The translations under genes and the position numbers were made by a program. A model generated the notes under the pieces. That model was not told the origin of the DNA. It saw only the letters and a list, made by a program, of their open reading frames with translations, and made no database searches. From Candidatus Magasanikiibacteriota bacterium (lineage in GTDB: Bacteria; Patescibacteriota; Patescibacteriia; Magasanikbacterales; UBA922), in assembly GCA_041665025.1 (NCBI GenBank), contig JBAYJP010000004.1:26311-90310 (forward strand): DNA of 64,000 bases. Direction: 5' to 3'. Shown here one piece after another: positions 3,071 to 61,999 of this stretch (position 1 is the first letter of the stretch; each line of letters begins with the position of its first letter).

Positions 3071-3919
3071 TTGGTGTTAGAATTTAACCATATGGCGTAT
3101 ATAAAAACACAAGAAGAGATCAACCTTATTATTGAGGGCGGGCATATTTTGGGGGAAATACTTGAAAAACTGGGCGCCATGGTGCGTCCGGGTATTTCTG
3201 CGTTTGAAATAGACGGACAGGCAGAAAAGATGATTCGGGAAGCAGGTGGACGCCCGGCGTTCAAAGGCTATCAGGGACGAAAAAGTGACACACCATTTCC
3301 GAGCACTATTTGTGCATGCGTAAATGAAGAATTGGTACATGGTATTGCAACAAGAGACAAAATTTTGAAAGATGGGGATATTTTTAGTATCGATATTGGC
3401 ATGGAATACCCAACAGGAAATTCAAAATTCAAAATTCAAAATTCAAAATTAAAGAGAGGTTATTTTACTGATACGGCTTTGACTGTTGTAGTGGGTAAGG
3501 TCCCAGAGAAGACCAAGCAGCTTTTGAATGTTACAAAAAAATCTTTAGAAATTGGCATCAAGCAATGCGTCGTGGGGAACACTGTTGCAGACATTGGCCG
3601 TGCCATACAAGATTATGTTGAACCCCAAGGATATGGCATTGTGCGCGATCTTGTTGGACATGGAGTGGGGCACGCAGTACATGAAGAACCGCGTGTGCCA
3701 AATTACTATGATCCAAAACTTGAACAATGGGAATTGCGTGCTGGTGTGGTCATAGCTATTGAACCTATGGTGACGATGGGACATTATGGCGTAGAAACAG
3801 CAGACGATGGGTGGAGCATTGTCACCGCAGACAAGAAATTATGTGCGCATTTTGAACATACTGTTATTATTACTGAAGGTGGCCCTGTCGTAGTCACACG
3901 TAGGCCGAACGAACGTTAG
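3071..3919 (+). CDS. map: methionine aminopeptidase type I
   Basis: ICACVNEELVHG, the metal ligands D..D, HGVGHAVHEEP and HFEHTV motifs. An insert at 3418-3450 carries a 7-nt tandem repeat. Confidence 0.9.
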   Translation: MVLEFNHMAYIKTQEEINLIIEGGHILGEILEKLGAMVRPGISAFEIDGQAEKMIREAGGRPAFKGYQGRKSDTPFPSTICACVNEELVHGIATRDKILKDGDIFSIDIGMEYPTGNSKFKIQNSKLKRGYFTDTALTVVVGKVPEKTKQLLNVTKKSLEIGIKQCVVGNTVADIGRAIQDYVEPQGYGIVRDLVGHGVGHAVHEEPRVPNYYDPKLEQWELRAGVVIAIEPMVTMGHYGVETADDGWSIVTADKKLCAHFEHTVIITEGGPVVVTRRPNER

Positions 3920-4385: not shown

Positions 4386-4458
4386 TTTTATCTCAATGTA
4401 TCTAAACCTATCTCAATATATATAGAGATACATGGAGATAAGTTGAGATAGTAACTGT

Positions 4459-5073
4459 ATGTTATCCATTGTATTAGCCCGCCGTGATTTCCGCGAATAC
4501 GATCAGATCATCTCAGTGTATACGCGTCAAGAAGGTAAACACGAATTACTTGCGCGGGGAGTAAAAAAAATTACATCAAAAAATTCGGCTCACTTAGAGC
4601 CGTTTTCTATCGTAGATATAGAAATTGCACACGGCAAGGAAATTGATCATGTTACCAAAGTCCAGCCAGTTGAATATTTTGCGAATATCAGAAATAATCT
4701 TGAAAAAAGTTTGATGGCGGGGTATGTTGTCTCATTGCTGAACACATTGTTGCGTGAAAAAGAAAAAGATGAACATTTGTTTGATATGACTTTCTCGTTG
4801 TTTGAGTTTATTAATTTTCAATTTTCAATTTTCAATTTTCAAGTCTTACTTGATAGTTTTGTAGTTAAATTTTTGAAATGTTTAGGATTTTCTATGTTTG
4901 AGAGTTCTGGTATTGAAAAGTGGAAAGATATATTACAGATCATGGAAAATGGAGATTTGGAAGAAGTAAACAAACTAGAATACGATGAACATTTGCATAG
5001 AAAAATATATGAGTTTCTAGTATATCAAACAGAGCGGAAAGTGCCAGATTGGGCTAAAACTTGCATATTTTAG
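4459..5073 (+). CDS. recO: DNA repair protein RecO (short form)
   Basis: N-terminal OB-fold pattern ARRDFREYDQIISVYT...GVKK. Contains a 7-nt x4 tandem repeat at 4816-4843. Confidence 0.65.
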   Translation: MLSIVLARRDFREYDQIISVYTRQEGKHELLARGVKKITSKNSAHLEPFSIVDIEIAHGKEIDHVTKVQPVEYFANIRNNLEKSLMAGYVVSLLNTLLREKEKDEHLFDMTFSLFEFINFQFSIFNFQVLLDSFVVKFLKCLGFSMFESSGIEKWKDILQIMENGDLEEVNKLEYDEHLHRKIYEFLVYQTERKVPDWAKTCIF

Positions 5074-5177
5074 AGAAAAACGATAAGATAAAGCACGTAT
5101 CACATAACACATATCACATATCACATATCAAAATTGTTAAGTGTTACGTGATAAGTGTTATGTGATAATAAAATTTT

Positions 5178-6473: not shown

Positions 6474-6554
6474 TAATATGTACGAAATACGAAAATACGA
6501 AAGTAAATATGTAATTTTTGTAATTTTGTAATTTTCGTATTTCGTACATAAATT

Positions 6555-14480: not shown

Positions 14481-15707
14481 ATGTCAGTGCCAACATTCAT
14501 GGTAAAAAAACAAGATGGCACCCAAGTCAAAATGACATTGGACGAGTTTAAGGTATACCAACAGACACTAAAGCACTTGAGCACTAAAGCACTTGAGCAC
14601 AACGACCAACCTCTCAATCAGCCAGCTAAAGAAGTTGCAAAGAGTGATGACGTGCCAAAAGGAAAAATGGCTATAGTTGAAAAAAAGGAAATAAAACAAA
14701 AAAAAGAAGAATTGCCCATGGTATTGGGGACAGAAGCAGTGACAACGGTGAGTCCGGTGAAAGATGTATTTGTTGACGAAGCTAAATATGTACGAAATTC
14801 GAAAACTGCGAAAAATACGAAAGTAAACGAGAAAAATATTGTTGAAAAAGAGGTTAAAAAGCCTATTTCATTAGCTAAAGATGATTTTGTATCGTTATTA
14901 GAAGAAGATGAGGAAGATGTGCCTAAACCGCAAGGACAAGCAGTAACGATGAGTTCGTATGATGATGTGGTGAAAAAAATTATCACTGAAAGCGGAGTGC
15001 GTGTGCCCGCAGATCTGAAAGAGAGGCTTTCGTCGCTTATTTTGTCCTATATCAAACAAGTTCGTGATGAATACCAATTTATTGACTATGCAGATCGACC
15101 GGCACAAAGGGGAGGTGTGGGTTTGTCAAAAGATGATGCTTCAAAATTATTATCAATGATTAAAAAAACCAATACTCAGCCTGCTAAGCGTAGTTTAGAG
15201 ATTGTTACGGATTCTATTGTTACTAAACCCGCACAGAAAAGTTTGAATGTTATTACGGATTCCACCTCGGTTAGATCTATTGAACGAAGTCAAAAGATTA
15301 TTACGGATTCCGCTATTGATAAACCAATTGATATAGTACAGCCACGCAACGTGGTTCATGATATTGTCTCCATACCGCCTGAACAAAAAACAGTGGGACC
15401 AGAAGGAGAAATGAGTACGTTTGGATTATCAGATTTTCGTAGATTGGCCCGTGATCCTGCAAAAGCCCGCGACATGCTTTTTTCAAAGATTCAGGGGTGG
15501 AAAGCCGAGTCTTTTTTACTCTATATGAAAGCAGCACAGGCCTGGCACAAGAGTCCTCTCTATAGAGAATATCTTGACTTGACGGAGAATTCACTTAAAG
15601 AAAATACGCAAATTTCACAATTGTTGATCGAGCAAACAAAGGCTGGGGGGATGACATTTGGAGAATATAAAGAAATTGTTGAGTTGAATAGACAACTTAG
15701 TAACTAA
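14481..15707 (+). CDS. hypothetical protein with internal ~50-60-bp tandem repeats
   Basis: The ATG at 14481 follows the upstream stop. Three imperfect repeats (..ITDS..) span 15190-15330. Confidence 0.5.
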   Translation: MSVPTFMVKKQDGTQVKMTLDEFKVYQQTLKHLSTKALEHNDQPLNQPAKEVAKSDDVPKGKMAIVEKKEIKQKKEELPMVLGTEAVTTVSPVKDVFVDEAKYVRNSKTAKNTKVNEKNIVEKEVKKPISLAKDDFVSLLEEDEEDVPKPQGQAVTMSSYDDVVKKIITESGVRVPADLKERLSSLILSYIKQVRDEYQFIDYADRPAQRGGVGLSKDDASKLLSMIKKTNTQPAKRSLEIVTDSIVTKPAQKSLNVITDSTSVRSIERSQKIITDSAIDKPIDIVQPRNVVHDIVSIPPEQKTVGPEGEMSTFGLSDFRRLARDPAKARDMLFSKIQGWKAESFLLYMKAAQAWHKSPLYREYLDLTENSLKENTQISQLLIEQTKAGGMTFGEYKEIVELNRQLSN

Positions 15708-15720
15708 AAAATATTAAAAA

Positions 15721-15796
15721 TGTACGAAATTCGGAAACTACGAAATATTCGAAATACATTTTTTTCGTACCTTTCGCAGCTTTCGTATTTCGTACA
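15721..15796. repeat. TACGAAA-heptamer palindromic element (copy A)
   Basis: tgtacgaaat(t/a)cg(g)aaactacgaaatattcgaaatacatttttttcgtacctttcgcagctttcgtatttcgtaca. Near-identical to the copies at 16235 and 17488. Confidence 0.8.
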
Positions 15797-15799
15797 TGA

Positions 15800-16231
15800 A
15801 TGTATATGCAACAGTTCGTCATTCCACAATTTATCGATGTCGAAGACAAGATTTTTGGGCCAATCACCACACGTCAGTTTTTGATTTTGCTTGTGGCCGG
15901 CATTTGTATATTTTTATCCTACCGTTTTGCTGATCTTGCGTTGTTTATTGTCGTACTTGCCGTCATGGGGGGCTTGGCATTAGTGTTCGCATTTGTTAAA
16001 ATTAACGGACAGACGTTTCATTATTTTTTGTTAAATATTATTCAGACCTTGCGCAAGCCATCTTTGAGGATTTGGAGAAAATTTTATCATAAAAAAGAAT
16101 TAGAATTTTTGAGAAAACAAGTAACTGAAGAAAAAATTATTGAAGAAAAGGCAAAGCCCGTGCACAGAGAGAGAATTAGAGATTTGGCTCTGCTTGTTAA
16201 TACTGGTGGTTTTTATAAGCCAGAAGAATAA
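15800..16231 (+). CDS. PrgI-family (VirB3-like) conjugal-transfer membrane protein
   Basis: N-terminus VIPQFIDVEDKIFGPITTRQFLILL followed by two TM helices, typical of PrgI/VirB3-like proteins that sit upstream of VirB4. Confidence 0.55.
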   Translation: MYMQQFVIPQFIDVEDKIFGPITTRQFLILLVAGICIFLSYRFADLALFIVVLAVMGGLALVFAFVKINGQTFHYFLLNIIQTLRKPSLRIWRKFYHKKELEFLRKQVTEEKIIEEKAKPVHRERIRDLALLVNTGGFYKPEE

Positions 16232-16234
16232 TTA

Positions 16235-16310
16235 TGTACGAAATACGAAAACTACGAAATATTCGAAATACATTTTTTTCGTACCTTTCGCAGCTTTCGT
16301 ATTTCGTACA
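16235..16310. repeat. TACGAAA-heptamer palindromic element (copy B)
   Basis: More than 90% identical to copy A. Confidence 0.8.
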
Positions 16311-16322
16311 TAATATTATGTT

Positions 16323-16739
16323 ATGGACCAAGGAGGTAAACAATATACGCTAAGAAGAAATGATTTGATATATCCAGAATTGAGTTTTAAGATTAGTGGT
16401 GTTCTATTTAATGTGTTTAAACAGTTGGGCGGAGGTCATGAAGAAAAATACTACGAGAAAGCAGTGTCTATCGGTTTTACTAAAGGACAGATAAAGTTTA
16501 ACCGCCAATATTATGTTCCTCTAACGTATGAGGGTGAACATATTGGTAAATATTACTTAGATTTTTTAGTAGAGGGTAAGATAATATTGGAATTAAAAAG
16601 AGGAAAATATTTAAATGCACGTCTTATAGATCAGGTAACTAAATATTTGGAAACTTTAAAGTTACAATTGGCAATTATTGCATGTTTTACGAGCAATGGT
16701 GTAATAATAAAACGTATTATAAATCATAACATGCTGTAA
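16323..16739 (+). CDS. GxxExxY-family protein (PD-(D/E)xK-like)
   Basis: GGGHEEKYYEKAV matches the G-x-x-E-x-x-Y signature, and the length is ~140 aa. Flanked on both sides by TACGAAA elements. Confidence 0.6.
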   Translation: MDQGGKQYTLRRNDLIYPELSFKISGVLFNVFKQLGGGHEEKYYEKAVSIGFTKGQIKFNRQYYVPLTYEGEHIGKYYLDFLVEGKIILELKRGKYLNARLIDQVTKYLETLKLQLAIIACFTSNGVIIKRIINHNML

Positions 16740-16744
16740 TACAC

Positions 16745-16777
16745 TTTCGAAATTTCGTAGCTTTCGAATTTCGTACA
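16745..16777. repeat. TACGAAA-family half element (right arm only)
   Basis: tttcgaaatttcgtagctttcgaatttcgtaca. Confidence 0.5.
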
Positions 16778-16782
16778 TATAT

Positions 16783-17469: not shown

Positions 17470-17470
17470 T

Positions 17471-17565
17471 TATGTACGAATTAATTATGTACGAAATACG
17501 AAAACTACGAAATATCCGAAATACATTTTTTTCGTACCTTTCGCAGCTTTCGTATTTCGAACATA
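17471..17565. repeat. TACGAAA-heptamer palindromic element (copy C) separating the two VirB4 ORFs
   Basis: Near-identical to copies A and B, with a short 5' partial duplication atgtacgaattaatt. Confidence 0.8.
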
Positions 17566-17571
17566 TCTATT

Positions 17572-19452
17572 ATGCCGTTCAAACCCGTTAGTTTTGGAAA
17601 AAATCCAAAGTTCGCTCCCATATCTGCTCCAGAAGATGAACAAAAGAAAAAAGTTCAGCAGGAAATGGTGTCGTTGAAAGAAGAGCGTTTGTACCGCGAG
17701 GGCACTGTTGCCATTCGCGATCTTATTGCACCTTCTGCGTTTAGAGTTGAGTCAAGCTTTCTTCAGTTGGGTACGACTATGCTTCGGACTATTTTTATCG
17801 TGAGTTACCCTCGCTATATTTCTGTCGGATGGAGTGCGCCTATACTCAATTTGAATTTGACCATGGATATTAGTATGTTCTTTTATCCGATTAATTCTGC
17901 GATTATTTTGAAACAGCTCAAGAAAAAAGTAGGTGCATTGCAAGCGCAATTATCCGCGGATGCAGAAAAAGGAGCGCCCCGTGATCCAGTACGCGAAACG
18001 GCGTTGCAAGATATTGAACAATTGCGCGATGATTTGACTCAAGGCACTGAACATTTTTTTCAATTTGCGTTTTATATCACATTATATTCCACGAATCTTG
18101 AAGAATTGGAACGTATTACCGATGATATCCATAATATTTTTGGTTCAAAATTGATTCACAGCAAACATGTGTTGTATCAGGCAGAACAGGGATTTAATTC
18201 GACGGTACCGATGAGCGTCGATGAGCTTGTTATTGCGTTTAATATGAATTCATCTCCTATTGCAGCGTCATTTCCTTTTATATCTTCTGAGCTGACTTCC
18301 GACGATGGTATCTTGTATGGTGTGAATCGCCACAATAACAGTCTTATTTTGTTTGACCGTTTTTCTTTGCAAAATGCAAATATGGTCGTATTTGCAACCT
18401 CTGGTGCAGGAAAATCATATGCGGTTAAGTTGGAAATTTTGCGCAGTCTCATGATGGGAGTGGATATCATTGTCATCGACCCTGAAATGGAGTACGTGCA
18501 TCTTTGCGAGGCAGTAGGGGGTACGTATATCAGTATTTCTCTTGCTTCGGAAAGTAAAGTCAATCCGTTTGATTTGCCTCGACCTGTTGGGCAACAAGTT
18601 TCAACTGAAGATATTATCCGGAGTGCAGTTATTACACTCAAAGGGTTGTTGCGTATTATGTTTGGCACTATTACTGCCCAAGAGGATTCTATTTTGGATA
18701 GAGCATTGCTTGAAACATATGCCAAAAAAGATATTACTGCCCAAAGCGATTTGTCTACGGTTGAGCCGCCAATTATGCAAGATTTGCTTGATGTACTTGA
18801 AGGTATGGAAGGCGCAGAAACACTTGTGTTAAAGTTGAAAAAATATACGGAAGGAACATTTGCAGGACTTTTCAATTCACCGACCAATGTAAACATGAGC
18901 AATCAGCTTGTCATATTTAGTGTGCGTGATTTGGAAGATGAATTGCGTCCCATGGCTATTTATACATTGGTCAATTATATTTGGAATATTGTACGTTCGG
19001 AGCGCAAAAAGCGTTTGCTCATGATTGATGAGGCGTGGTGGCTCATGATGCATGAAGATAGCGCAAAATTTATGTACGCGCTTGTGAAACGGTGTCGCAA
19101 ATATTATTTGGGTGTTACGACGATTACCCAAGATGTGAATGATTTCTTGCGTTCTCAATATGGGCAAGCGATTGTAAACAACTCTGCGTTGCAAATGCTC
19201 TTGCGCCAGTCGCCGTCTGCGGTGGACGTGATCCAAAAAACATTCATGCTGACTGAAGGAGAGAAATATTTGCTTTTGGAAAGTCCGGTAGGGCAGGGTA
19301 TATTTTTTGCAGGCAACAAACATGCGGCCATTCAGATTGTTGCTTCATATACCGAAGACCAATTGGTTACATCAAATCCCCAGCAATTGCTTGAAATCGA
19401 GCGTGCTAAAAAAGAATTTGAACAGCAGATGACGGGACGAGACCAAAGTTGA
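17572..19452 (+). CDS. VirB4/TrbE/CagE-family T4SS ATPase (C-terminal major part)
   Basis: CagE_TrbE_VirB-type region (FIVSYPRYISVGW), Walker A FATSGAGKSY, Walker B LLMIDEAWWLM. Confidence 0.85.
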   Translation: MPFKPVSFGKNPKFAPISAPEDEQKKKVQQEMVSLKEERLYREGTVAIRDLIAPSAFRVESSFLQLGTTMLRTIFIVSYPRYISVGWSAPILNLNLTMDISMFFYPINSAIILKQLKKKVGALQAQLSADAEKGAPRDPVRETALQDIEQLRDDLTQGTEHFFQFAFYITLYSTNLEELERITDDIHNIFGSKLIHSKHVLYQAEQGFNSTVPMSVDELVIAFNMNSSPIAASFPFISSELTSDDGILYGVNRHNNSLILFDRFSLQNANMVVFATSGAGKSYAVKLEILRSLMMGVDIIVIDPEMEYVHLCEAVGGTYISISLASESKVNPFDLPRPVGQQVSTEDIIRSAVITLKGLLRIMFGTITAQEDSILDRALLETYAKKDITAQSDLSTVEPPIMQDLLDVLEGMEGAETLVLKLKKYTEGTFAGLFNSPTNVNMSNQLVIFSVRDLEDELRPMAIYTLVNYIWNIVRSERKKRLLMIDEAWWLMMHEDSAKFMYALVKRCRKYYLGVTTITQDVNDFLRSQYGQAIVNNSALQMLLRQSPSAVDVIQKTFMLTEGEKYLLLESPVGQGIFFAGNKHAAIQIVASYTEDQLVTSNPQQLLEIERAKKEFEQQMTGRDQS

Positions 19453-19491
19453 ATAAGTAGCTAAGTTGGCTAAGTTACCTAAGTTGCGGAT
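19453..19491. repeat. left inverted repeat flanking four-helix-bundle gene (ctaagtt x3)
   Basis: taagtagctaagttggctaagttacctaagttg. Its partner lies at 19846-19895. Confidence 0.6.
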
Positions 19492-19845
19492 ATGGGGACG
19501 TATAAAGATTTGGATGTATATAATAGATCATTTAAATGTTCTATTGCGATTTATAAATTAAGTTTAGAATTGCCAAAATATTTGCAGTATGATATTGCAG
19601 ATGATATACGAAGGGCAGCGCGGTCAATTCCATCCAATATTGCTGAAGGATATGGTAGAGATAAATCTAGTGCTGACAAAATAAATTTTCTTAGAACCTC
19701 GCTTGGTTCTAATGATGAGGTATTATTTAATCTTGAGTTTATATTTCAACTAGGTTTAATCAAAAGAGAAAGATATGAAAAAGCAGTCGAGCAGTATACC
19801 ATTATAGGGGCAGAGCTTTTTAAACTCATTCAGACATTAAAATAA
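19492..19845 (+). CDS. four-helix-bundle protein (23S rRNA intervening-sequence protein family)
   Basis: The 117-aa protein has SIPSNIAEGYGR at its core, which is the family hallmark. Confidence 0.8.
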   Translation: MGTYKDLDVYNRSFKCSIAIYKLSLELPKYLQYDIADDIRRAARSIPSNIAEGYGRDKSSADKINFLRTSLGSNDEVLFNLEFIFQLGLIKRERYEKAVEQYTIIGAELFKLIQTLK

Positions 19846-19895
19846 TTTTCAACTTAGATAACTCAGGTACTTAGTTAACTTAGCTACTTACGTAT
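19846..19895. repeat. right inverted repeat flanking four-helix-bundle gene
   Basis: caacttagataactcaggtacttagttaacttagctactta is the reverse complement of the left repeat. Confidence 0.6.
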
Positions 19896-20486: not shown

Positions 20487-20559
20487 CGTAGTTATAAAGT
20501 TGAAAGTTATAAAGTTTGTAAAGTTCAAATCAATTTTTCATAATTCATCATTAATCTTA

Positions 20560-25391: not shown

Positions 25392-25481
25392 TGGCGGAGA
25401 GATAGGGATTCGAACCCTAGGTCCACTTTCGCGGACTGCAGTTTAGTAAACTGCTGCTATCGACCACTCAGCCATCTCTCC
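25392..25481 (-). tRNA. tRNA-Ser-like, class II, anticodon loop reads UUACUAA (anticodon ACU, atypical A34)
   Basis: Perfect 7-bp acceptor GGAGAGA/UCUCUCC, T-arm UAGGG-UUCGAAU-CCCUA, long variable arm, CCA encoded. Confidence 0.6.
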
Positions 25482-25555
25482 TCGCAGTTATAAAGTTGAA
25501 AGTTTATAAAGTTATAACGTAACAATATTGGACATTATAACTTTTAACTTCGGCG

Positions 25556-26209: not shown

Positions 26210-26213
26210 CTAT

Positions 26214-26339
26214 GTGCGAACTACGAAATTATACGAAAGTACGAACTACGGAAATTTCGTAATTCGTACTTTCGTAAACTTTTCGCGAAAAGCGACGTGG
26301 TCGCCTCGCGACTTTACGTCGTAATTTCGTATATCACAT
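26214..26339. repeat. TACGAAA-family palindromic element (long variant)
   Basis: tatgtgcgaactacgaaattatacgaaagtacgaactacgg...tttcgtaattcgtactttcgtaa plus a GC palindrome gcgacgtggtcgcctcgc. Confidence 0.6.
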
Positions 26340-28430: not shown

Positions 28431-28521
28431 TCTTCGGCAGCGCAACTCACCCCGTCCCGAATACTCGGGACACCCCTCTCTTACTAAGAGAGGGGTCGGG
28501 GGTGAGTTGTGTGGAAGAAAA
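28431..28521. repeat. GC-rich nested-hairpin element (family with 60175-60290)
   Basis: Outer stem gcaactcacccc/ggggtgagttg encloses hairpins gtcccgaatactcgggac and cccctctcttactaagagagggg. Confidence 0.7.
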
Positions 28522-28902
28522 AATAGACTTGTATTTTTATCGAACAGGAAAATTTCGTAATTGGGACTATTGAACTTGTCGATTATATATTAAAATTGGC
28601 TAATTTAAGCCAATTTTTTGTTTTTCCCACAGGTGGTGTCTTGACAATAATGCTTGGGTATGTTATTATATGCTGTTATTTAACAGTAGACGAAAGTAAA
28701 AGTGATATAGAGGAATATGTGTTTTGTTGTCCTGTACAACGTAAACACATACTCTCCTGTATCGGTTTGTTAGTTTGTTGAATGTGGTTGTACAGTAATA
28801 GTAAAGAACACAATTCAATATACATCTCCCCAAAGAGACGAGGATTCAGAATCGTACATATTTAGAAGAAGTTTTGTGAAATAAATATGTATAATCCTGT
28901 AT

Positions 28903-29896: not shown

Positions 29897-30505
29897 TTAC
29901 TCAATCATTTTATCCACTATACCATATTCAACCGATTCTTTTGCAGTCAAGAAATAATCTCGATCAGTATCTTTTTCAACTTTTGCTATTTCTTGTCCTG
30001 TATGTTTTGACAGGATATGGTTTAATTGGTCTTTGGTTTTCAAGATGCGTTCTGCATGAATTTTTATATCACTTGCTTGGCCTTGCATGCCACCCATGAC
30101 TTGGTGGATCATGACTTCACTGTTGGGAAGACAAAATCGTTTCCCTTTTTTGCCCGCTGCCAATAGCACTGACGCCATACTGGCTGCAAGCCCGATACAC
30201 ACTGTCGAAACATCGGATTTGATGTATTGCATGGTATCGTACACCGCAAGCCCAGCAGTGACTGAACCACCAGGAGAATTGATGTACAATTTGATATCCT
30301 TATCCGGGTCTTGGTTATCCAAAAAGAGTAATTGCGCAATGACAATATTTGCCACATGATCATCTATTTCTGTACCAAGGAAAATAATACGGTCCTTGAG
30401 CAGGCGTGAATAAATGTCATAGGCTCGTTCGCCGTACGATGTCTTTTCAATAACTGTTGGAACGAGGATTTGGTTATGGAGTGGGGATAATGTGTCGATA
30501 GACAT
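29897..30505 (-). CDS. clpP: ATP-dependent Clp protease proteolytic subunit
   Basis: Catalytic Ser in GLAASMAS, plus His (MIHQ) and Asp. Length 202 aa. Confidence 0.92.
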
Positions 30506-30514
30506 ATTTTATTG

Positions 30515-30548
30515 TTAATAGTAAGATCAGAAGATCGAAAGATCATTT
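30515..30548. repeat. inverted repeat flanking four-helix-bundle gene (aagatc x3)
   Basis: taagatcagaagatcgaaagatcat. Its partner lies at 30899-30942 (atgatcttttgatcttacgatctta). Confidence 0.6.
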
Positions 30549-30899
30549 TTTGAGTGAATTAATATACAAATTAAGATCTTTTGTAAGTTGTTTATACAGA
30601 TTATTTATATGAATAAATTCTTCTTTTGTTAAATAATTTTTGCCGAATGCTACAGACAAGTGACTTCTTGCTTCGGCTATTTCACCGCGTGATATATACA
30701 GAATTCTTTTTTTGTCTGCATAATAAAATCTTCCATGAGATTCAGCTATATTCGCAATGATACTATTTGCAGATCGTACTGTCTGTGACACGAGAGCATA
30801 TTTTTCCCATTCAGGATATTTTTCCGTAATGGTATATACATACATAAGAGCATTATAGCCATTTTTCCATATACCAAGCTCATAAAACTCTTTGTACAT
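30543..30899 (-). CDS. four-helix-bundle protein (23S rRNA intervening-sequence protein family), second copy
   Basis: 118 aa with ANIAESHGRFYYADK... pattern, homologous to the protein at 19492-19845. Confidence 0.8.
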   Translation of the reverse strand: MYKEFYELGIWKNGYNALMYVYTITEKYPEWEKYALVSQTVRSANSIIANIAESHGRFYYADKKRILYISRGEIAEARSHLSVAFGKNYLTKEEFIHINNLYKQLTKDLNLYINSLKK

Positions 30900-30942
30900 A
30901 TATGATCTTTTGATCTTACGATCTTATAATCATATAGTACTT
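30899..30942. repeat. inverted repeat partner (aagatc-type)
   Basis: Reverse complement of 30515-30548 with 2-3 mismatches. Confidence 0.6.
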
Positions 30943-30945
30943 TAT

Positions 30946-31920
30946 TTATGCCATTTTTTCAATTGTAGATAAGACTTCCCGCAAAGCACTATCCATTGTC
31001 CCCGACACACTAAATCCCGCCGCCTTCTTGTGTCCACCGCCACCAAACGCATGTGCAATATGTGAAACATCAATATCATCGCGCGTAGTACGCATGCTTA
31101 TTTTAATAGTATTGTCATTTCTTTCTCTAAATACAAGCGTGGCTCTCCCTTCTGACAAATTATTCATAAGATTGGCAATGCCCTCGAGTTCTGGTTCGGT
31201 AATATGATATATATTCATGTCTTCTTGCGTTACATAGGTATACACCATATCTGTCTTTTCATCATGCATAAGCCGGTTTAATATAATGCCCCAGATCTTG
31301 AGCGTTTCAAATCTTTTATCATGTAGTAAATTTTTTCTGATAAGCGAGATATGAGCTCCTTTTTTTACGAGGCTGCTTGCAATAGACAGTGCTTTGCGCG
31401 AAGTCCCTGAATTGGAAAAGTTTGTCGTATCAGTAAATAATCCGGTGAGAAGCGCAGTTGCTATGTCAGGAGTAATTCTAATTCCATTTTGCACCATGTA
31501 ATAGTATATGACTTCTGTGGTTGAGGAAGCTTGTTCAATAATAAGCTTGTAATCCCCATAACCAGCATTGGTGCGATGATGATCTATGTTTATAAGAGGA
31601 TATATTTTTTCTTTTGGCAGGAATGGCTCGATTCCTGCGTACTTCAGATCTCCCGAATCACATACAATTATCGCACCCCAGTTTTGTTTGAATAATTCTG
31701 TGTCTTGCGATGTTTCTAAAATATAGGGTATATAGTGGAATTGTGCAGGAATAGGGGAGACGCAAAATAATTGGAATTTTTTACCGAGTGATTGGAGCAT
31801 GCCAGCCATGGCAGAAAGAGAACCAACCGCGTCACCGTCTGGATTTTGATGTGCCACAACCAAAAAGTTGTCATGTTCAGTGATGATATTGTGAATGAGT
31901 TTTGTTGTTCTTTCCAACAT
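30946..31920 (-). CDS. nrnA: DHH/DHHA1 phosphoesterase (NrnA-like oligoribonuclease/pAp phosphatase)
   Basis: Motifs HQNPDGDAVGS, DHH and GGGGH..AAG. Confidence 0.75.
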   Translation of the reverse strand: MLERTTKLIHNIITEHDNFLVVAHQNPDGDAVGSLSAMAGMLQSLGKKFQLFCVSPIPAQFHYIPYILETSQDTELFKQNWGAIIVCDSGDLKYAGIEPFLPKEKIYPLINIDHHRTNAGYGDYKLIIEQASSTTEVIYYYMVQNGIRITPDIATALLTGLFTDTTNFSNSGTSRKALSIASSLVKKGAHISLIRKNLLHDKRFETLKIWGIILNRLMHDEKTDMVYTYVTQEDMNIYHITEPELEGIANLMNNLSEGRATLVFRERNDNTIKISMRTTRDDIDVSHIAHAFGGGGHKKAAGFSVSGTMDSALREVLSTIEKMA

Positions 31921-32174
31921 ATGCGGTAAACAACTTGTATTAGTCCAGGTAGAACACAGATTTAACAGATGAAACAGATTTTAACAGATCCGTTTGTATC
32001 AGTTTGATCCGTTAAATCCGTGTTCTATTAAGTAGTCTTAGTAAGACCCATATCTCTTACGAGAGCTAGACAGTATATAAGAGTTTTATATTGTTGTCAA
32101 GCTCTCATAGAGGGTGTATACTATCTCTGTTTTTATTTGAATTTTGACATTTGAGTTTTGAGTTTGTCATAAAT

Positions 32175-36309: not shown

Positions 36310-36362
36310 ATTTAGATACGAACTACGAAAGCATACGAAATTACGAACTACGGATAGAATAG
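36310..36362. repeat. TACGAAA-family element (divergent, partial)
   Basis: atacgaactacgaaagcatacgaaattacgaactacgg. Confidence 0.5.
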
Positions 36363-37266: not shown

Positions 37267-37911
37267 ATGGTAAAACAAGACTCTTCAGAGATCGAAAAAA
37301 TTCAAAATGAAGAAGGGGTAGAGCAAATCAATAACCTTGATGAAATTCATGAAAAAGGCTTTCTCAATAAGGCCGGTTTGTTTTTTTTGGAAGTAATCAA
37401 AATTGTCGTACTCGCAGGCATTACTATTGGCTTAGTCAGGTATTTTCTCTTTAAGCCTTTTTATGTAAAAGGCCAGTCCATGGAGCCGACATTTTATGAA
37501 CGAGATTATCTTATTATCGATGAAATTACCTATAGATTTCGTTTGCCAGAACGGGGTGAAGTAGTTGTTCTAGATTCACCAGTCAATAGTGACCATTATT
37601 TAAAAAGAATTGTCGGAGTTCCTGGTGATCGTGTAAAAGTAGAGGAAGGAAAAGTTATTATATATAATGACACATACCCTCGCGGTTGGGTACTTGAGGA
37701 AGAATATGTGACAGAAAATACTCCGGGGTCTTTGAGTATCACGCTTGGAGATAATCAATATTTTGTTTTGGGGGATAATCGTGATGCAAGTTATGATTCC
37801 CGTCGTTTTGGTGCTATCAACCGTAGTGAGATTATCGGACGCGTATGGCTACGCGGATGGCCATTTAGCCGTGTGTCTACGTTTACCGTGCCAGAATATA
37901 CACAGAGTTAA
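37267..37911 (+). CDS. lepB: signal peptidase I
   Basis: Catalytic Ser box GQSMEPTF, RIVGVPGD, and VLGDNRDASYDSR (Lys box region). Confidence 0.85.
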   Translation: MVKQDSSEIEKIQNEEGVEQINNLDEIHEKGFLNKAGLFFLEVIKIVVLAGITIGLVRYFLFKPFYVKGQSMEPTFYERDYLIIDEITYRFRLPERGEVVVLDSPVNSDHYLKRIVGVPGDRVKVEEGKVIIYNDTYPRGWVLEEEYVTENTPGSLSITLGDNQYFVLGDNRDASYDSRRFGAINRSEIIGRVWLRGWPFSRVSTFTVPEYTQS

Positions 37912-37997
37912 AAGTTGTAAAGTTTTGTATATAACTTACAACATTATAACTTTATAACTTGGAACATTATAACTTTACGACTTTAATTATTTTTAGT

Positions 37998-40287: not shown

Positions 40288-40289
40288 TA

Positions 40290-40357
40290 TGTACGAAATT
40301 CGAAAGCTACGAAACATACGAAATTTCGGACCTTTCGCAACTTTCGAATTTCGTACA
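40290..40357. repeat. TACGAAA-family palindromic element (divergent copy)
   Basis: tgtacgaaattcgaaagctacgaaacatacgaaatttcggacctttcgcaactttcgaatttcgtaca. Confidence 0.7.
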
Positions 40358-40387
40358 TAATTTAATTCAGAGTCTAAGGTTTTTCCC

Positions 40388-42628: not shown

Positions 42629-45600
42629 ATGAAACAACGCGCACGAACATGGTTTTTTGCTGGGTTATTGACCGCAGTATTTGTTGTTGGTTTTTTCGTG
42701 TTTTTTAATCCCGTGTTTGGCCAGGATACGCTTGGGTTGGATGTTGTGGAAAATGAAGGAGATATCGCGCTTGGTTCAGGAGATTTGCGAGTTACCATAG
42801 TTAGAATCATAAATATTGCGTTGGGTTTACTAGGTATTGTAGCGCTTGGCATTGTCCTGTATGGAGGATTTGTTTGGATGACTGCGGGAGGCAATGAAGA
42901 AAAGGTTGCGACTGCGCGTAAAATTTTAGTAAATGGCACCATTGGGCTTGTCATTATTTTATCTGCATGGACTATTACGTGGTTTGTGTTGAGTAAATTA
43001 ATTGAAGCCACTGGTGGCGGGGGAGGCACAACAGGAGGAGATCGTTGTACGTGTGCAGAACCTCCTGAGAGTGAATGTAGGAAAACAATTGAATGTCGAA
43101 ATTTTTGTACCAGATTTCCTTCGCAGTGCTGTAGCACAGATCATTTTATTGTAAAGAGCATCACACCAAGTACTCCGCAAACAGATCAAGAAATATTCAT
43201 GAATAATCCGGTCATTCGCGTGGTATTTAGTAGAGAAGTGGCAGGCAGTCCAAGCGATGCATTTAAAATTTACAAAAAAGAGGATGGTGGTGTAAACAGA
43301 GATGTCACACAAGATTTTAGTTTTAATTTTGATGGGAATGACACAATTGCTGAAGCCGAGTATGTACAAGGAACAGTGTGTGGCCAACACCAGGGGCATG
43401 ATGTCCATTGTTTGCTCGCAGGCGAATACGAAGTAAAAGTAGGTGATGTGCGTGACAAAGATGGCAACAAGCTTGAAGTCGATACTACATGTGGCAATTT
43501 TCCCAAAGATGCATTATTTAGGACAGGAGATGAAGCAGAACTTGCTATTGATACTCAAGCGCCAAATTTGTCTCAAGTTACCATAGATGGCGGAATTATA
43601 CCAAACGTGCGTTTGGTACAGGGCAGGACATATCCGATAGCGACCACTCTTTCAGATAATCGCGGAAATGCTTATGTACATTTGAATATATATAAAGAAG
43701 GAGACTCTGGAAATAAAATAAGGCAACATATCAATGGTCCTGCAGTATCTATTGGTTCTAGTCCCGCGTTTCCGTTCTTGTATGGTTTCAAAGTTCCTTA
43801 TACTTTAGAGGTTGGACAAACATATGTGGCTGAAGCAGTTGGTAATGACATAGACAATAACACGGTAACGAGCCAGCTCACCTTTAGAGTCATTCCTGTG
43901 AGCTGTGATAATGGCGAACTCGATCCTGGTGAAACGAGTCCTGATGTAGGCGGACCATGCGGAGGGGGAGATGGCGATGCGTGCCGTGTAGACACGGATT
44001 GTTCAAGTTGGCTTAAATGCTTAAATCCGAGTAATCAATTTTGTAGTGCTACAGATACAACATGCGTTTGCAGACCATGGCCATATATTACTGACGTAGA
44101 GTACATGAATGGAGCACAGGGTAATTGGATTACCATATTTGGGCGTAATTTTGGTTATGATCCAGGATTAGTAACATTTGACTATCCTGGTGGACAAAGA
44201 CAAACTGCACCGTTGGCGGAATGTCGGGCGAATGATGTGTGGGAAGACTCGTGGATTATTGCAGAAGTTCCAGAACAGATAACGCCTCAAGCGGCAAAAG
44301 ATCCAGCCCTTGAACTCAATGGAACGGACGCTTACGTGAGCGCACCTTTCAATATTTTTGATTGGGGATTTGAAGACGGTTATTTTTCCCTTGAGTTTTG
44401 GGTCAAACCACCCGCAAATGGAATAATACCTCATACATTACTCGCAGGTACGCAAGAGGGGGGTCAATTTGGAATATTTACTTCTTCAGATGATCTAGGA
44501 AGCGTAGAGGCATGGGTTAGAGATGCTGGGGGTGAATATAATATTGTAGTGGGAGATCCGGGACAACTACTGGGTAATGAGTGGAATCACGTCGTAATGA
44601 CTACTCAAGGTGTTGAAGGCGGAAGTGAAGTAAGATTATATATTAATCATAATTCTTTGGATAAAGAACCATTTACAAGCCAAGGTGCTGGTTTTGAATA
44701 TGTGGAAGCTGAGGAGTTTATTATTGGTTTTTTGGGAGATGATGACTATATGCGGGGCGCTATTGATGAAGTTGCCGTATATGCGGGCGTTTTGACCGAG
44801 GCACAAATAGTAGAACATTATAATGCAAAAAATATAGGAACCATTGAGTCTTATCGAACATTAGTAAACGCTATAGCTCCGCGCGCGTATTGGACATTTT
44901 CTAATTTCCAATCCGGGGATACACAGGTAACTGATATTTCTGGAAATGGATTTCATGGGACATATCATGGGGGTATAGAGGCAGTAAGCGGACCTTTTAT
45001 TTCCAATACGGCAACCGTTGACAAGCCTAGTATTTCTGTGACTACGGCTGGAACAGGATTTACGGATAACACGGACGATGATTTTGGTACTAGACTACCT
45101 TTATTTGAATATAATAGTATTCAGCGTCCGGGGTTATGTAGTGTCACGGTTCCGCGCGATATTGTTCATACATTAGCAGACGGCACTACAGTCACGACTA
45201 CTGCAGGATCGACCAAAGCTCCTCCTGATACGCCCATAGAAGCTGTGGGTAAAGGTTTTGGAAACGCGCGAGGATCTCTTAGTTTTGAAAGTACCAATGC
45301 CGCAGTTGATAGTTGGAGTGAAAATTTAATTTTGTCAGCTGTCCCTATCATGCAAGAGCAGAGGAAGGCAGTTGTGAGAGTTACTGCACCGTCTGGTCAA
45401 GTAAGTAATGGCATTCCTTTTTGGGTAAGTTCTCTTGCAGACATGTATCCTCCTATTATTGAAAGTATTAGCCCATCTTCAACTACAAAAGGAAGCTATA
45501 TTACTATAAAAGGTAAAAATTTTGGAAATAGCGGAATTGTTTATTTTAATACGGACGAAGATATTGGCTGTCCAGGCCAAGGTTGTTTTGCGAGTGCATC

Positions 45601-48600
45601 GTTGCCCGATTATTGCGAAGACACATGGAATGATAATCAAATAATTGCGAAAGTCCCGACAGATGGTTCGTTTATTTTCGGTAACTATCATGTTGTCGTA
45701 GTAAGAGATGACAACCTAAAAGGGGTAAGTAAAGTTGTCGAGAAAGTAACAGATGGAGATCCGCGGCCGAGTATCTGTTACCTTCAGCCGAGTTCTGGGC
45801 CAGCTCCATTGCCAGTGGGACAGTACTTGACCATAAAAGGAGAAAATTTAGATAAAAATGCTAGTGGCAGTGAAATATATTTTTGGAGTCCTCTCTCTAT
45901 TGCAGGAGACATAGCTACCTGGCTGCATACTACCACAAATGATCCAGGATCTTCACGAGTTGTCGAAGGAAAAGAGATCAGGGCATTTATACCTGTTGAT
46001 ACTACTGCGGGATTTACTATGATAACAGGTCCTATTGTGGTCAAGCCTATTGCAAGTAATGTTGTGAGTAATGAGATGATATACAATGTACGGGATTGCC
46101 GCGAATTTGGCACCGGGTCTCTGGTAGGATTTCAGTGTTGTCAGGAAGGTCGTGAAGCGGGCCGATGGAAAAGCAATGCGTTTGTGTGCGAGGGAGGCAG
46201 GCGTGAAGCTGGTTATGCGTGGAGATTTACATCTGGCAAAATTCCTGACAGATTTTTTGTACTGGAACAATGTCAGGACGGCACCATAGTTCCTTCACCC
46301 AGCCCTTGGGCAAACCGACCACAGGGGAATTCGGCATGTTTGAATGCTGAAATTGACTTGGTATTTAGTTTGCCTGTAAAAAAGAGTTCTATAGGAACGG
46401 GCACAGATTTTGAAGAAGGGCTCGACGGAAGCAATATAAAAGTTGAAACATGCGGAAGCGGACAACAAATAGATTGCAGCGCTTCTGCTGATGTTACCTC
46501 AGAATTCAGGCCTGCTTTTACAGAAACATCTGTTGCGATAGCGAGATATCGTGATCAAGATGGAGGTAATATTGATACGCTTACCCCCAATACCTGGCAC
46601 CGTGTTTCTTTGAAAGAAACGGTGACATCGGCCCATTCTGAAAATATACTTGGCGTCCAAGAAGAAAGAAATGAAAATTTGGTTGCGACCCGTCCGTGCG
46701 AAAGTAATGATGGTTCTTCCTTCGCCTTTTGTTTTGAGTTCAAGACTGGTGCTCCGGGTACTATATGTACATTGAAAGATGCTTTGATTGACCCGCCACG
46801 GAAGACGACCAATCTCTTGGGTGTCGTCCAAGATGATGCTTTTCCCCGTATGTATGATATTACACGGATATTTAACCCGGGAACTCCTGGATTGAATCCC
46901 TTGTATTATATGGTGAGAGGAGTAGCCAATCAGGAATGTACGACAATAAATGTAGATAGCAAGCCTTGGATCTGGGGCCCAACTGATCCTCCGGTAACAG
47001 GCTCTGTTCCTGCGACAAGTGAAAAGAGAGCCCGAGGAAGATATGTAAATAGCCGTGGTATTGCAAAAGCATGGGAAGACTGGCCGCAAGGGTATAATAT
47101 ATTTGCGACTACTCCTGAAAATGTGAGCAGTACCATTGTCGTGAGTAGGGAGAGCGACACTATTGAGAGGCTTACCAAGCTTCCTGATCCTACTATAATA
47201 CCCGCTGGTTTTGGACGTTCAGTTGAATTTTCTCCAGATGGCAATTATCTCGCCGTAGGTCATGATGTGGCACCTTTCATTTCTATGTACAGACGAAACG
47301 GTGACACATTTACCAAACTCGATATCCCATCAGGACCAACTCAGTGGATAGTAAGCATGGATTTTTCTTCGGATGGTGTGTATTTGGCAGTATTGCAGCA
47401 AATTCCCCCTTTTGTGACCATGTATAAACGAAATGGTGATACGTTTACCAAACTAGCCACTCCCAGCCCAAGTAATTGGTCTGGAAGTAGCAGAGGATGG
47501 ACTATTGATTTTTCTCCAGATACAAATTATTTAGCTATTGCTCAGGAAACCAGTCCATATATCACTATATATCATAGAAGCGGAGATACGTTTAGCCGAG
47601 CAAATGATCCAGACATTTTGCCCACAGGAAGTGGTAAGGGTGTGACTTTTTCTCCGGATGGAAATTATATGGCAACGTCTTTTGCCGTATCACCTTATTT
47701 AACTGTCTATAAGAGAAATGGTGATGCTTTTGTAAAGCTCGAAAATCCTTCACCTTTGCCGACAGATGGTGCTCGAGGTGGAATTGCATTTTCACCAGAT
47801 AGCAATTATCTAGTCTTGACAACCCACGGGTCGACAAACATTATGTTTTATAAGAGAAATGGTGACGCATTTACGAGGATAGCCGATAATGTGGATCAAC
47901 TTCCTCTCCTTGGCTTTCGCGTTGACTTTTCTCCGGATGGTTCATATGTGGTAGTTTCACATGGCTCTTTTTCTTCCACACCTTTTTTTAGCTTCTACAG
48001 GCGAGACAATGATGCCATTACCAAGATAAATACCTTTGTCCCATCAACACCGGTAAATGGCGCATCGGATGTGGCATTTTCTCCCAATTCACAATATGTA
48101 GCAGTGGCTCATACTATAACGCCGTTTTTAAGTATTTATAAAATAGCATATAGAATGGGTGCGTCAACGGTAGAAACTTTCGATACCACAGTGATTACCG
48201 CCACAAGTACGTTGCATATAGATCTTACCCATCCCCAAGTCGTAAGCAAATGGCCATCATGTATTGAGGCATGCGTAAATGCAGAAATAGGGGCTCAATT
48301 CAATCAGATAATGGATAAGACAACGTTTACTACTGATAATGTTCATCTATATAGGTGTAGTGATGAGACATGCACCGTCACGTCAACGGCGTCAATTAGC
48401 CCTGGCAGTCATGACGACAACATTCTTCGTTTTTATCCCCAAGGACTTCTCACATCAAGCACCTGGTATCTAGTTGAGCTAACTTCTGGAATCAAGGGTG
48501 TGAGCGGAGTAGATCCAAGCGGCAGGGCGTTACAAGATAATAGAGGAAAATCTATTGAAAGGACGACTTGGAAATTCCGTACCAAGCCATCATCTGAACC

Positions 48601-55243: not shown

Positions 55244-55657
55244 ATGAATTTAAAAAAAACTGTTATACTATTTAGTGTGGGTGTTCTCCTTGTGCTGTTG
55301 GGGACAGGTCTATGGTTTTTTGTATCTCGTGGAAAGAAAATTGTTACTGATAAACAAGATAAGGACGGAACAGCTTCGTCCACATCGCAAGGAACTATTA
55401 CAACTACAGACATACCTGAATGGTATGCAACTGACAAAGACGCGGATGGTATAGAAGATACAAAAGAAGATGAATTGGGATTAGATAAATGGGCAGCTGA
55501 TACTGATGGAGATGGGATTTCTGACTTTGTAGAAATCAATGAATTCAAGACAGACCCAAGAAATCCTGATACGGACGGTGATGGTTTTTGGGATGGAGTT
55601 GAACTTGAAAGTGGATATAATCCACTAGGAGAAGGGAAACTTATAACTTCAAGTTGA
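55244..55657 (+). CDS. TM-anchored protein with thrombospondin-type-3-like DxDxDG calcium-binding repeats
   Basis: N-terminal TM, then DKDADGIEDTKEDE, DTDGDGISD and DTDGDGFWDGVE repeats. C-terminal GYNPLGEGKL. Confidence 0.6.
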   Translation: MNLKKTVILFSVGVLLVLLGTGLWFFVSRGKKIVTDKQDKDGTASSTSQGTITTTDIPEWYATDKDADGIEDTKEDELGLDKWAADTDGDGISDFVEINEFKTDPRNPDTDGDGFWDGVELESGYNPLGEGKLITSS

Positions 55658-55758
55658 AGTTATAAAGTTCCAAGTTATAAAGTTGTAAAGTTCATAAAAT
55701 ATTTGTTACTTTCAACTTTATAACTTTATAACTTTATAACTCTATAACTCTATAACAT

Positions 55759-56665: not shown

Positions 56666-56715
56666 ATGTACGAAATACGAAAACTGCGAAAGGTACGAAA
56701 AAATATATTTCGTGT
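56666..56715. repeat. TACGAAA-family element (partial)
   Basis: tgtacgaaatacgaaaactgcgaaaggtacgaaaaaatatatttcgtg. Confidence 0.5.
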
Positions 56716-60174: not shown

Positions 60175-60290
60175 CCTTCGGCGATGCAACTCATCCCCTT
60201 ACCCCTTCTCTTAAAAAGAGAAGGGAATATATTTTCGTCGCCCCTCTCTTCGTAAGAGAGGGGGGGTGAGTTGCGTGGCCGAAAGGAGGG
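60175..60290. repeat. GC-rich nested-hairpin element (family with 28431-28521)
   Basis: Outer ttcggc/gccgaa and gcaactcatcccc/gggggtgagttgc stems enclose cttctcttaaaaagagaag and cccctctcttcgtaagagagggg hairpins. Confidence 0.7.
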
Positions 60291-60509
60291 AGTTAGAGGG
60301 TGGTTTGCGTTGCAGAGTAAAAGAAAAAGAACTTCATAGTATACAAATTGTATTCAATTCCTTGACACATGTTTTTATAATCGTTACACTAATACCATCA
60401 AAAAGTTTTTGAATAGTTTATTTGTATAATGAACAAAAATAGTGTTCAAATAAATTTTTTTCTCTAAACTTTATAACATTATAACTTTAAAATTTTTAAC
60501 TATCACTTT

Positions 60510-61799: not shown

Positions 61800-61840
61800 A
61801 CGAAGTTGAAAGTTGTAAAGTTAAAAGTTATAAAGTTGAC

Positions 61841-61868
61841 AAAAGCCATCATTCTGTATGGCTTTTGT
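61841..61868 (+). terminator. rho-independent terminator after ftsZ
   Basis: aaagccat-cattctgt-atggcttt followed by tgtgt. AT-rich stem, moderate strength. Confidence 0.5.
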
Positions 61869-61999
61869 GTATTTTACACATTTTGTGTTTAAGAAAGATA
61901 ATGTGGTATACTAACAAAGTTAAATGTCATAATGTTCCAAGTTATAACGTACGAATTGGTAACTTTATAACTTTTTACTTTCAACTTTATAACTTTCGT

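Follow-up and report, generated by a model that had tools for sequence, protein, structure and literature searches.

No function is known for the very large family of 23S rRNA intervening sequence (IVS) proteins. The origin of rRNA IVSs has likewise been open since about 1990, a mobile-element origin having been discussed since 1990–93 (PMC4990558). In Coxiella burnetii, the open reading frame (ORF) for the family member S23p lies between terminal inverted repeats, which pair into a 28-bp stem cut by RNase III, and three to four tandem GACAGAT heptamers, variable in number among strains, stand just upstream of the ORF; S23p/Xcc0516 is a homopentamer (PMC4990558). Insertions in rRNA genes of the Candidate Phyla Radiation (CPR) occasionally encode the same four-helix-bundle (4HB) family (PMC11270868), and 4HB genes inside cas loci have been reported as possible components of these loci (PMC3936711). 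Intergenic tandem heptamers are a comparable puzzle: cyanobacterial short tandemly repeated repetitive (STRR) sequences, as at hupS–hupL (PMC2670836), convergent GGGAATC pairs of Xanthomonas (PMC4692102) and TAACTGA arrays of Beggiatoaceae (PMC4679880) have no known function, and none of these three papers mentions 4HB or S23p proteins. Here we analyse two 4HB genes, each enclosed by inverted arrays of short tandem units, in a 64-kb stretch (hereafter the window) of a metagenome-assembled genome of Candidatus Magasanikbacteria (Patescibacteria/CPR), for which this window alone represents the host; an earlier note, made from the letters of this DNA, had drawn attention to them. The reading we favour, at a probability of roughly 65%, is that both genes are cargo of IVS-type hairpin elements lodged in sense in the spacers of protein operons, and that these elements are kin to the ORF-bearing IVSs of 23S rRNA.

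Gene 1 (19492–19845, plus strand) encodes 117 aa and gene 2 (30543–30899, minus strand) 118 aa. Gene-family calls with Pfam and TIGR02436 hidden Markov models (HMMs) bore out the proposed membership of the 23S rRNA IVS-protein family: PF05635 (23S_rRNA_IVP) matched genes 1 and 2 at E values of 4e-27 and 2e-26 (94.9 and 92.9 bits, cut-off 33.8), and TIGR02436 at 7e-28 and 2e-25 (97.1 and 89.2 bits, cut-off 24). The R-x3-S-x3-N-x2-E motif quoted for the family (PMC3936711) is readable in both proteins, and R41, S45, N49 and E52 are invariant in an alignment of 36 homologues. The two genes share ~25% mutual identity, and no further 4HB copy was found in the window. Both are co-directional with their neighbours and lie between protein genes. 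Gene 1 stands between a VirB4/TraG-type P-loop ATPase gene and the next gene of the operon, directly after virB4 as had been described, whereas gene 2 lies between a DHH/NrnA-like gene (30946–31920) and clpP (29897–30505), all on the minus strand.

Each gene is bracketed by arms that stand 0–5 nt from its start or stop. In cassette 1, the left (5′) arm (19446–19486, plus strand) reads ataagta-g followed by three copies of ctaagtt with a period of 9; it runs from 1 nt past the VirB4 stop region to 5 nt short of the ATG. The right (3′) arm (19850–19891, plus strand) holds about five aacttag-type units, two of them perfect, with a period of 8–9, and ends 4 nt before the next ATG (19896). In cassette 2, on the minus strand, the 5′ arm (30901–30936) carries three to four copies of aagatc and ends ~4 nt before the ATG, and the 3′ arm (30518–30546) carries three copies of gatctt and includes the stop codon of gene 2. 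Tandem Repeats Finder (TRF) recovered the sub-repeats at 19460–19486 (period 9, 3.0 copies) and 19851–19883 (period 9, 3.8 copies) in cassette 1 and at 30523–30545 (period 8, 2.9 copies) and 30901–30935 (period 8, 4.4 copies) in cassette 2. The repeated unit is ctaagtt plus a 2-nt spacer in the former and aagatc plus a 2-nt spacer in the latter; of the three direct sub-repeats per arm first described, the tandem organisation holds in all arms, and the number becomes three to five, some degenerate, with a length of 8–9 nt including the spacer. The arms of cassette 1 pair as an inverted repeat of 22 nt at 91% complementarity (19454–19475 with 19869–19890), or of 31 nt at 81% in extended form (19446–19476 with 19851–19881), and those of cassette 2 as one of 25 nt at 88% (30522–30546 with 30902–30926), in agreement with the tight bracketing initially reported.

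The two cassettes share this architecture with different repeats, again as had been observed, and each repeat is private to its own arms. The cassette 1 sequence CTAAGTTNNCTAAGTT, allowing up to two mismatches, has four matches in the window, all in the two arms, against 0.64 expected, and none of 100 shuffles reached four; AAGATCNNAAGATCNNAAGATC from cassette 2 has three matches, all in the arms, against 0.06 expected. No copies of the ctaagtt or aagatc units occur elsewhere in the window. We used the complementarity between upstream and downstream flanks as the main bracketing statistic, with scores of at least 14 taken as a strong bracket, because fixed-lag tandem detection undercounts arrays with alternating 8/9-nt spacing. 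The two cassettes score 20.5 and 16.5, values that reach or exceed the 99th percentile (16.5) of 974 ORFs from the window and 80 related loci. Minimum free energy (MFE) and centroid RNA folds of the coding strand both predict a terminal stem of ~30 bp closing each cassette (z −3.15 and −4.22), which bears on the question, raised in the earlier note, of whether the flanks form a stem. Both cassettes share with rRNA IVSs an ORF in sense inside a terminal inverted-repeat stem, here a predicted one, and with that of Coxiella short tandem repeats in the stem beside the start codon. Terminator and promoter scans found no intrinsic-terminator-like site at either cassette or in its arms and promoter-like sites at background level, and Rfam scans of the window (gathering threshold) and of the cassette (E value) returned only tRNAs or noise.

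Comparison with relatives bears on how cassette 1 reached its place. Among 80 species-representative loci with VirB4 orthologues at 70–90% identity, the gene order up408–PrgI–TraC-like–VirB4–dn196 is conserved, and in none does a 4HB gene follow VirB4. The VirB4|dn196 spacer, measurable in 59 of these loci, has a median of 17 nt, and cassette 1 is missing in all 57 other measurable species; in the closest relative (L003, 90% VirB4 identity) the spacer is 22 nt long and lacks a hairpin. Since VirB4 is joined directly to the next gene in orthologous loci of about 60 related Magasanikbacteria species, the sequence comparison shows cassette 1 to be an insertion at this site. Alignment of the filled with the empty site, the latter from L003, a relative at 90% protein identity that provided the sole empty site compared, revealed no target-site duplication, and the outermost unit CTACTTA may bear a weak resemblance to the ancestral spacer CTACTAA.

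The arms have been inherited with the genes. Homologues of gene 1 at a YbaB|RecR site carry ctaagtt/aacttag arms at 81% identity and cgaagtt/aacttcg arms at 75% identity, both arms having changed in concert with pairing kept, and a homologue at 73% identity after a VirD4-like gene has cttag-type units. Homologues of gene 2 show the same behaviour, with aagatt/aatctt arms at the NrnA|ClpP site known from the window (69% identity), aagatta/aatcttc arms at a different site (71%) and gagatt/aatctc arms at a third (62%). Close homologues (62–81%) elsewhere thus keep their unit, either unaltered or altered in concert, which indicates that the arms belong to the cassette, and the concerted change on both sides preserves pairing. 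A 6-mer of the repeated unit was common to 5 of 15 within-clade pairs versus 22 of 1210 pairs between unrelated elements (Fisher p 9e-6), and this sharing within clades argues against genes merely dropping into pre-existing host hairpins. The proposal that the gene travels as a small mobile or processed unit is accordingly upheld in part: gene and arms behave as a unit, as seen in the insertion and in the arms kept at other sites, whereas mobility and processing themselves are what we infer.

The association extends across the family. A profile scan of metagenomes yielded 80 loci (30–51% identity, contigs of 31–64% G+C) with 64 scorable 4HB genes, of which 36 (56%) are strongly bracketed, versus 4 of 268 other ORFs of the same loci (1.5%; Fisher p 3e-26); the median bracketing scores are 14.5 and 7, respectively (Mann–Whitney p 1.6e-20). 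Tandem 7- or 8-mers make up the arms of these metagenomic genes in nearly every case, and the unit is specific to the element, as with actaggg/ccctaat, ggaatgt/acattcc or caggggt/ccctgat. Five of the 64 genes (L094, L096, L097, L100 and L171) are located in sense within bacterial 23S rRNA genes and have tandem-unit arms too, so the link to 23S rRNA IVSs drawn in the earlier note finds support in 4HB genes residing in real 23S rRNA, and the Coxiella IVS is built alike. Co-directionality with both neighbours was recorded for 26 of 39 4HB genes versus 44 of 129 other ORFs.

Other spacers of the operon that holds cassette 1 contain 4HB or GxxExxY genes in scattered cases (L016, L025, L030 and L037), the 4HB genes of L025, L030 and L037 lying between up408 and PrgI. 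Seven of the eight 4HB/GxxExxY genes of the operon data set lie between inverted tandem-unit arms, each with its own unit (tacggat, taaacat, acagata or taaagtc). The window itself holds a second small inserted gene in this operon, which resembles a type IV secretion system (T4SS): the GxxExxY cassette (16233–16779, plus strand) consists of a tacgaaa hairpin (16233–16312, or 16232–16322 in the window-wide scan), a GxxExxY/PDDEXK_3 ORF (16323–16739) that matches TIGR04256 and is unrelated to 4HB, and a tttcgta arm (16744–16779). The insert is absent between PrgI and the TraC-like gene in all relatives except L016, whose GxxExxY protein is only 30% identical, which indicates independent arrival. 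GxxExxY homologues at other sites retain a (t/g)cgaa core in their arms, and a scan of viral contigs found no relatives there. Genes with PD-(D/E)xK-fold GxxExxY products share their chassis with the 4HB cassettes. Two arrangements of forward (F) and reverse (R) arms were found, F-ORF-R and [F-loop-R]-ORF-R, a hint of recombination at an arm, and a resident cassette can have its unit in common with neighbouring gene-less hairpins, as for tacgaaa in the window and aaagtc in L037.

Operon spacers of the relatives are normally 6–22 nt long; sub-repeat hairpins occur in 33 of 272 orthologous spacers, sporadically and clustered by genome, and L014, L026 and L072 each have a gene-less one between VirB4 and dn196. 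In L037 (1915–3765), L014 (570–3412) and L072 (5125–7990), the hairpins in successive operon spacers belong to a single unit family. Such one-unit runs suggest local spread, as does the identity of the L037 hairpin unit with that of the resident 4HB cassette. A 445-nt insert after VirB4 in L067 (7869–8315) was considered as a third cassette type and set aside, being ORF-less and made of four tandem copies of the 21-nt palindromic unit gtcccgactaagtcgggataa. Small GIY-YIG ORFs in spacers of relatives (L083 3218–3517; L181 5091–5381) represent a further class of small genes, which may be selfish.

A window-wide scan showed the same arm design, inverted arms of three to seven tandem 7–9-nt units, in many spacers. 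Sub-repeat arrays of at least four copies are present in 21 of the 39 window spacers of at least 30 nt, versus 2.6% of length-matched coding controls (Fisher p 6e-15), and 13 spacers combine an array of at least three copies with an internal hairpin, none of them containing a gene. The earlier note had set its cassettes against generic palindromes present at most intergenic sites; taken literally, arrays do occur at most of these spacers, and the cassette idea survives because each 4HB cassette has arms that are private to it and inherited with the gene. Exclusivity of the hairpin or array architecture to 4HB genes is not supported.

Gene-less hairpins of the tacgaaa family lie at 6474–6554, 15708–15799, 17470–17571, 26210–26339 and 40288–40387, mostly in spacers of secretion- or pilus-type genes, with single arms at 36316–36354 and 56669–56701; a further single arm of four units (14787–14822) falls within a called coding sequence (14481–15707) and not in a spacer. 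The aagttata/aacttta family includes a gene-less hairpin (55656–55758), lone arms at 20495–20526, 37904–37985, 60467–60503 and 61802–61846, and other members at 25486–25550 and 61960–61997. Its arms flank ftsZ (60510–61799) on both sides and are also found between tRNA-Ser genes; those around ftsZ show that core genes can be bracketed too, and the PrgI-like core gene of the T4SS can likewise be arm-bracketed. Gene-less hairpins with private units are cacatat (5094–5168), atctca (4388–4451) and aacagat (31950–32027). The gene-less hairpins have ~30-bp, A+T-rich stems with fold z-scores of −6.7 to −9.5 (−8 to −9 in the tacgaaa family), and the terminator scan classed none as intrinsic-terminator-like. 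The spacers beside 4HB genes differ, with one arm each (self-complementarity scores 7–13) and the partner arm across the gene. Multi-copy termini, as in MITEs (miniature inverted-repeat transposable elements) with their terminal inverted repeats (TIRs), were found within the 64 kb for the tacgaaa family, including the GxxExxY cassette, but not for ctaagtt or aagatc.

Several further features of the window were recorded. Stem mismatches in the gene-less hairpins at 16228–16318, 17482–17568, 5092–5170 and 31946–32030 are periodic and fall at inter-unit spacer positions. Many start codons (for example 15800, 16783, 17572, 19492 and 19896) lack an obvious Shine–Dalgarno sequence, and 2–20 nt usually separate the 3′ arm of the preceding hairpin from the ATG, so stem processing would leave very short leaders. 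The units aacagat (31950–32027) and acagata (L030 880–1430) resemble the GACAGAT of the Coxiella IVS (PMC4990558), which may be coincidence. Two perfect 7-nt arrays inside called ORFs, 3417–3453 (five copies of aaattca) and 4814–4844 (four copies of attttca), are complementary at 26 of 29 positions and lie 1.4 kb apart. A G+C-rich nested palindromic element occurs in two copies (28455–28560 and 60177–60285) in A+T-rich spacers, with no Rfam family above threshold. One of three clustered tRNA-Ser genes, called by ARAGORN at 25392–25481, has an unusual anticodon, ACT, and 42629–55234 is a single ORF of 4201 aa.

On the reading of both genes as cargo of IVS-type elements, a promoterless small ORF occupies the loop of a putative ~25–33-bp stem whose arms are inverted arrays of three to five tandem 7–9-nt units private to the element. 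By analogy with rRNA IVSs, the arms would pair in the read-through transcript into a long double-stranded RNA that RNase III may cut, releasing the ORF RNA and separating the flanking messages. With tandem units, a stem could still form in several registers despite slippage, and slippage would explain the variation in copy number. Cassettes might spread by recombination between like arrays or through a trans-acting factor, and the gene-less hairpins may be ORF-less relatives, analogous to short rRNA IVSs or MITEs. The cassette organisation and the link to IVSs are well supported by the sequence comparisons, and on this reading both cassettes are IVS-type elements outside rRNA, on a chassis common to GxxExxY genes. 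Some results weigh against this reading. The GxxExxY or 4HB gene of L077 has no bracketing arms, and ~44% of the sampled 4HB genes lack a strong bracket. The window contains no rRNA by Rfam scan, and neither cassette lies inside a 23S rRNA helix. The window also shows neither a transposase nor a clear target-site duplication, and neither 4HB unit has a second copy in it. The gene-less hairpins are the majority and also bracket core genes, so part of the signal could be a host spacer feature, and the concerted arm change could also stem from DNA-level homogenisation instead of selection on an RNA stem.

Two rival accounts deserve the closest weighing. If the hairpins were generic features of host spacers, serving mRNA processing, stability or punctuation, the genes would have entered, or been directed to, pre-existing loops and the arms would be no part of the cassettes. 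This accords with the abundance of arrays and gene-less hairpins in the window spacers, with the bracketing of ftsZ and T4SS core genes, with the gene-less hairpins at VirB4|dn196 itself in three relatives and with ORF-less heptamer hairpins in operon spacers of cyanobacteria and Xanthomonas (PMC2670836, PMC4692102). It is nonetheless made quite unlikely by the 4HB units, private in the window and recurring with the homologous gene at different sites, by the hairpin-free 22-nt empty site of the closest relative and by the 40-fold enrichment of bracketing around 4HB genes in unrelated taxa. A contender with somewhat better prospects, though we doubt it, treats the arms as DNA-level terminal inverted repeats bound at several sites by the encoded protein, whether 4HB or GxxExxY nuclease, or by a host factor, for transposition or homing, with the RNA stem incidental. 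The clade-specific unit that co-varies with the encoded protein, the insertion polymorphism among species, the nuclease fold of GxxExxY and the [F-loop-R]-ORF-R arrangements, which suggest recombination at an arm, would all fit, and an arm of three to five units would be well matched to a multimeric binder such as the homopentameric S23p/Xcc0516 (PMC4990558). Two unrelated proteins, however, share one architecture, many hairpins have no ORF, the L003 alignment shows no target-site duplication, and the strong preference for sense orientation in transcription units, including rRNA, points to a role at the RNA level. The DNA-level and RNA-level roles might coexist.

Two other explanations carry far less weight. 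A role as accessory proteins of the Avd type from diversity-generating retroelements (DGRs), with the repeats as debris of template and variable repeats, is very improbable: gene 2 does weakly resemble bAvd (PF22296, E 5e-4, 21 bits against a cut-off of 40; NF033474, E 4e-5, 23.9 bits against 80), far below the curated cut-offs, but the neighbours include no reverse transcriptase, the flanks consist of short inverted tandem units with no template/variable repeat pair, and both proteins pass TIGR02436 and not the Avd cut-off. Still harder to credit is chance complementarity or an assembly artefact, for which the low-complexity, A+T-rich nature of the spacers is the sole argument; the shuffle and rank statistics speak against it, as do dozens of unrelated contigs of the same design and the identical sequence in two independent assemblies, ENA ERZ27249449 contig k141_24438 and a Logan assembly (L001 and L002).

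Collectively, the evidence ties together the IVS protein family, rRNA IVSs and the intergenic heptamers through an ORF-in-hairpin design with 7–9-mer arms that recurs in rRNA and operon spacers across phyla; one element type carries either of two unrelated small genes and retains its arms on changing site. The link to intergenic heptamer repeats is the more far-reaching part and is possible. A bolder scheme, which we consider speculative and improbable as a whole, would make 4HB and GxxExxY genes the ORF-bearing members of a single hairpin-borne selfish class, with intergenic heptamer hairpins (STRR, GGGAATC, CPR) as ORF-less derivatives, rRNA IVSs as the subset that landed in rRNA, and the encoded proteins recognising their own unit arrays and driving processing or spread. 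The favoured reading predicts RNase III cutting of operon transcripts at the stems, specificity between protein and unit, and a correlation of heptamer-array load with 4HB/GxxExxY copy number. It also counsels caution in annotation, as 4HB genes within cas or secretion operons are probably passengers, and for cas loci this is more likely than a role as components. No statement of a general association of 4HB genes with tandem-unit hairpins was found in the literature searched, although one may exist beyond it.

Set beside known systems, the cassettes resemble several in part. Intrinsic terminators and repetitive extragenic palindromic (REP) sequences, with a short G+C-rich stem and a T run, were rejected as models, since no terminator-like site was found and the stems are A+T-rich and ~30 bp long. 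Integron cassettes (attC) also combine a promoterless small ORF with a structured imperfect palindrome and read-through expression, but were likewise rejected, since integrase and attI are missing, the ORF has an arm on either side, and the cassettes are scattered in operon spacers instead of forming an array. DGR Avd proteins show weak HMM similarity and come from a related family with the four-helix-bundle fold, whereas the window genes lack reverse transcriptase neighbours and template/variable repeats and score below the Avd cut-offs. MITEs and REP or bacterial interspersed mosaic elements (BIMEs) are closer, being short, intergenic, palindromic insertions, multi-copy as in the tacgaaa and aagttata families and polymorphic in presence at orthologous spacers, and MITEs further suggest a possible kinship of ORF-bearing and ORF-less copies; unlike them, the window arms are tandem units and not unique TIRs, no target-site duplication was seen, and neither a cognate transposase nor a REP-associated tyrosine transposase (RAYT) was identified. 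The intergenic heptamers share with the gene-less hairpins of the window 7-nt spacer arrays, often as hairpin-capable convergent pairs, between co-transcribed genes or upstream of starts, although they are described as one or few units per genome without an enclosed ORF, whereas the window units are many, partly private and in some cases enclose a gene. The rRNA IVSs of Leptospira and Coxiella differ in their host RNA, helix 9, 25 or 45 of 23S rRNA against an operon spacer between protein genes here, in the 8–9-nt units with spacers seen in the window, and in RNase III excision, which for the window cassettes we infer. They nevertheless match the cassettes in the features that define the element: a PF05635 ORF in the loop of a terminal stem (~28 bp there), in sense to the host transcript and, as in Coxiella, with tandem heptamers of varying copy number abutting the start codon.

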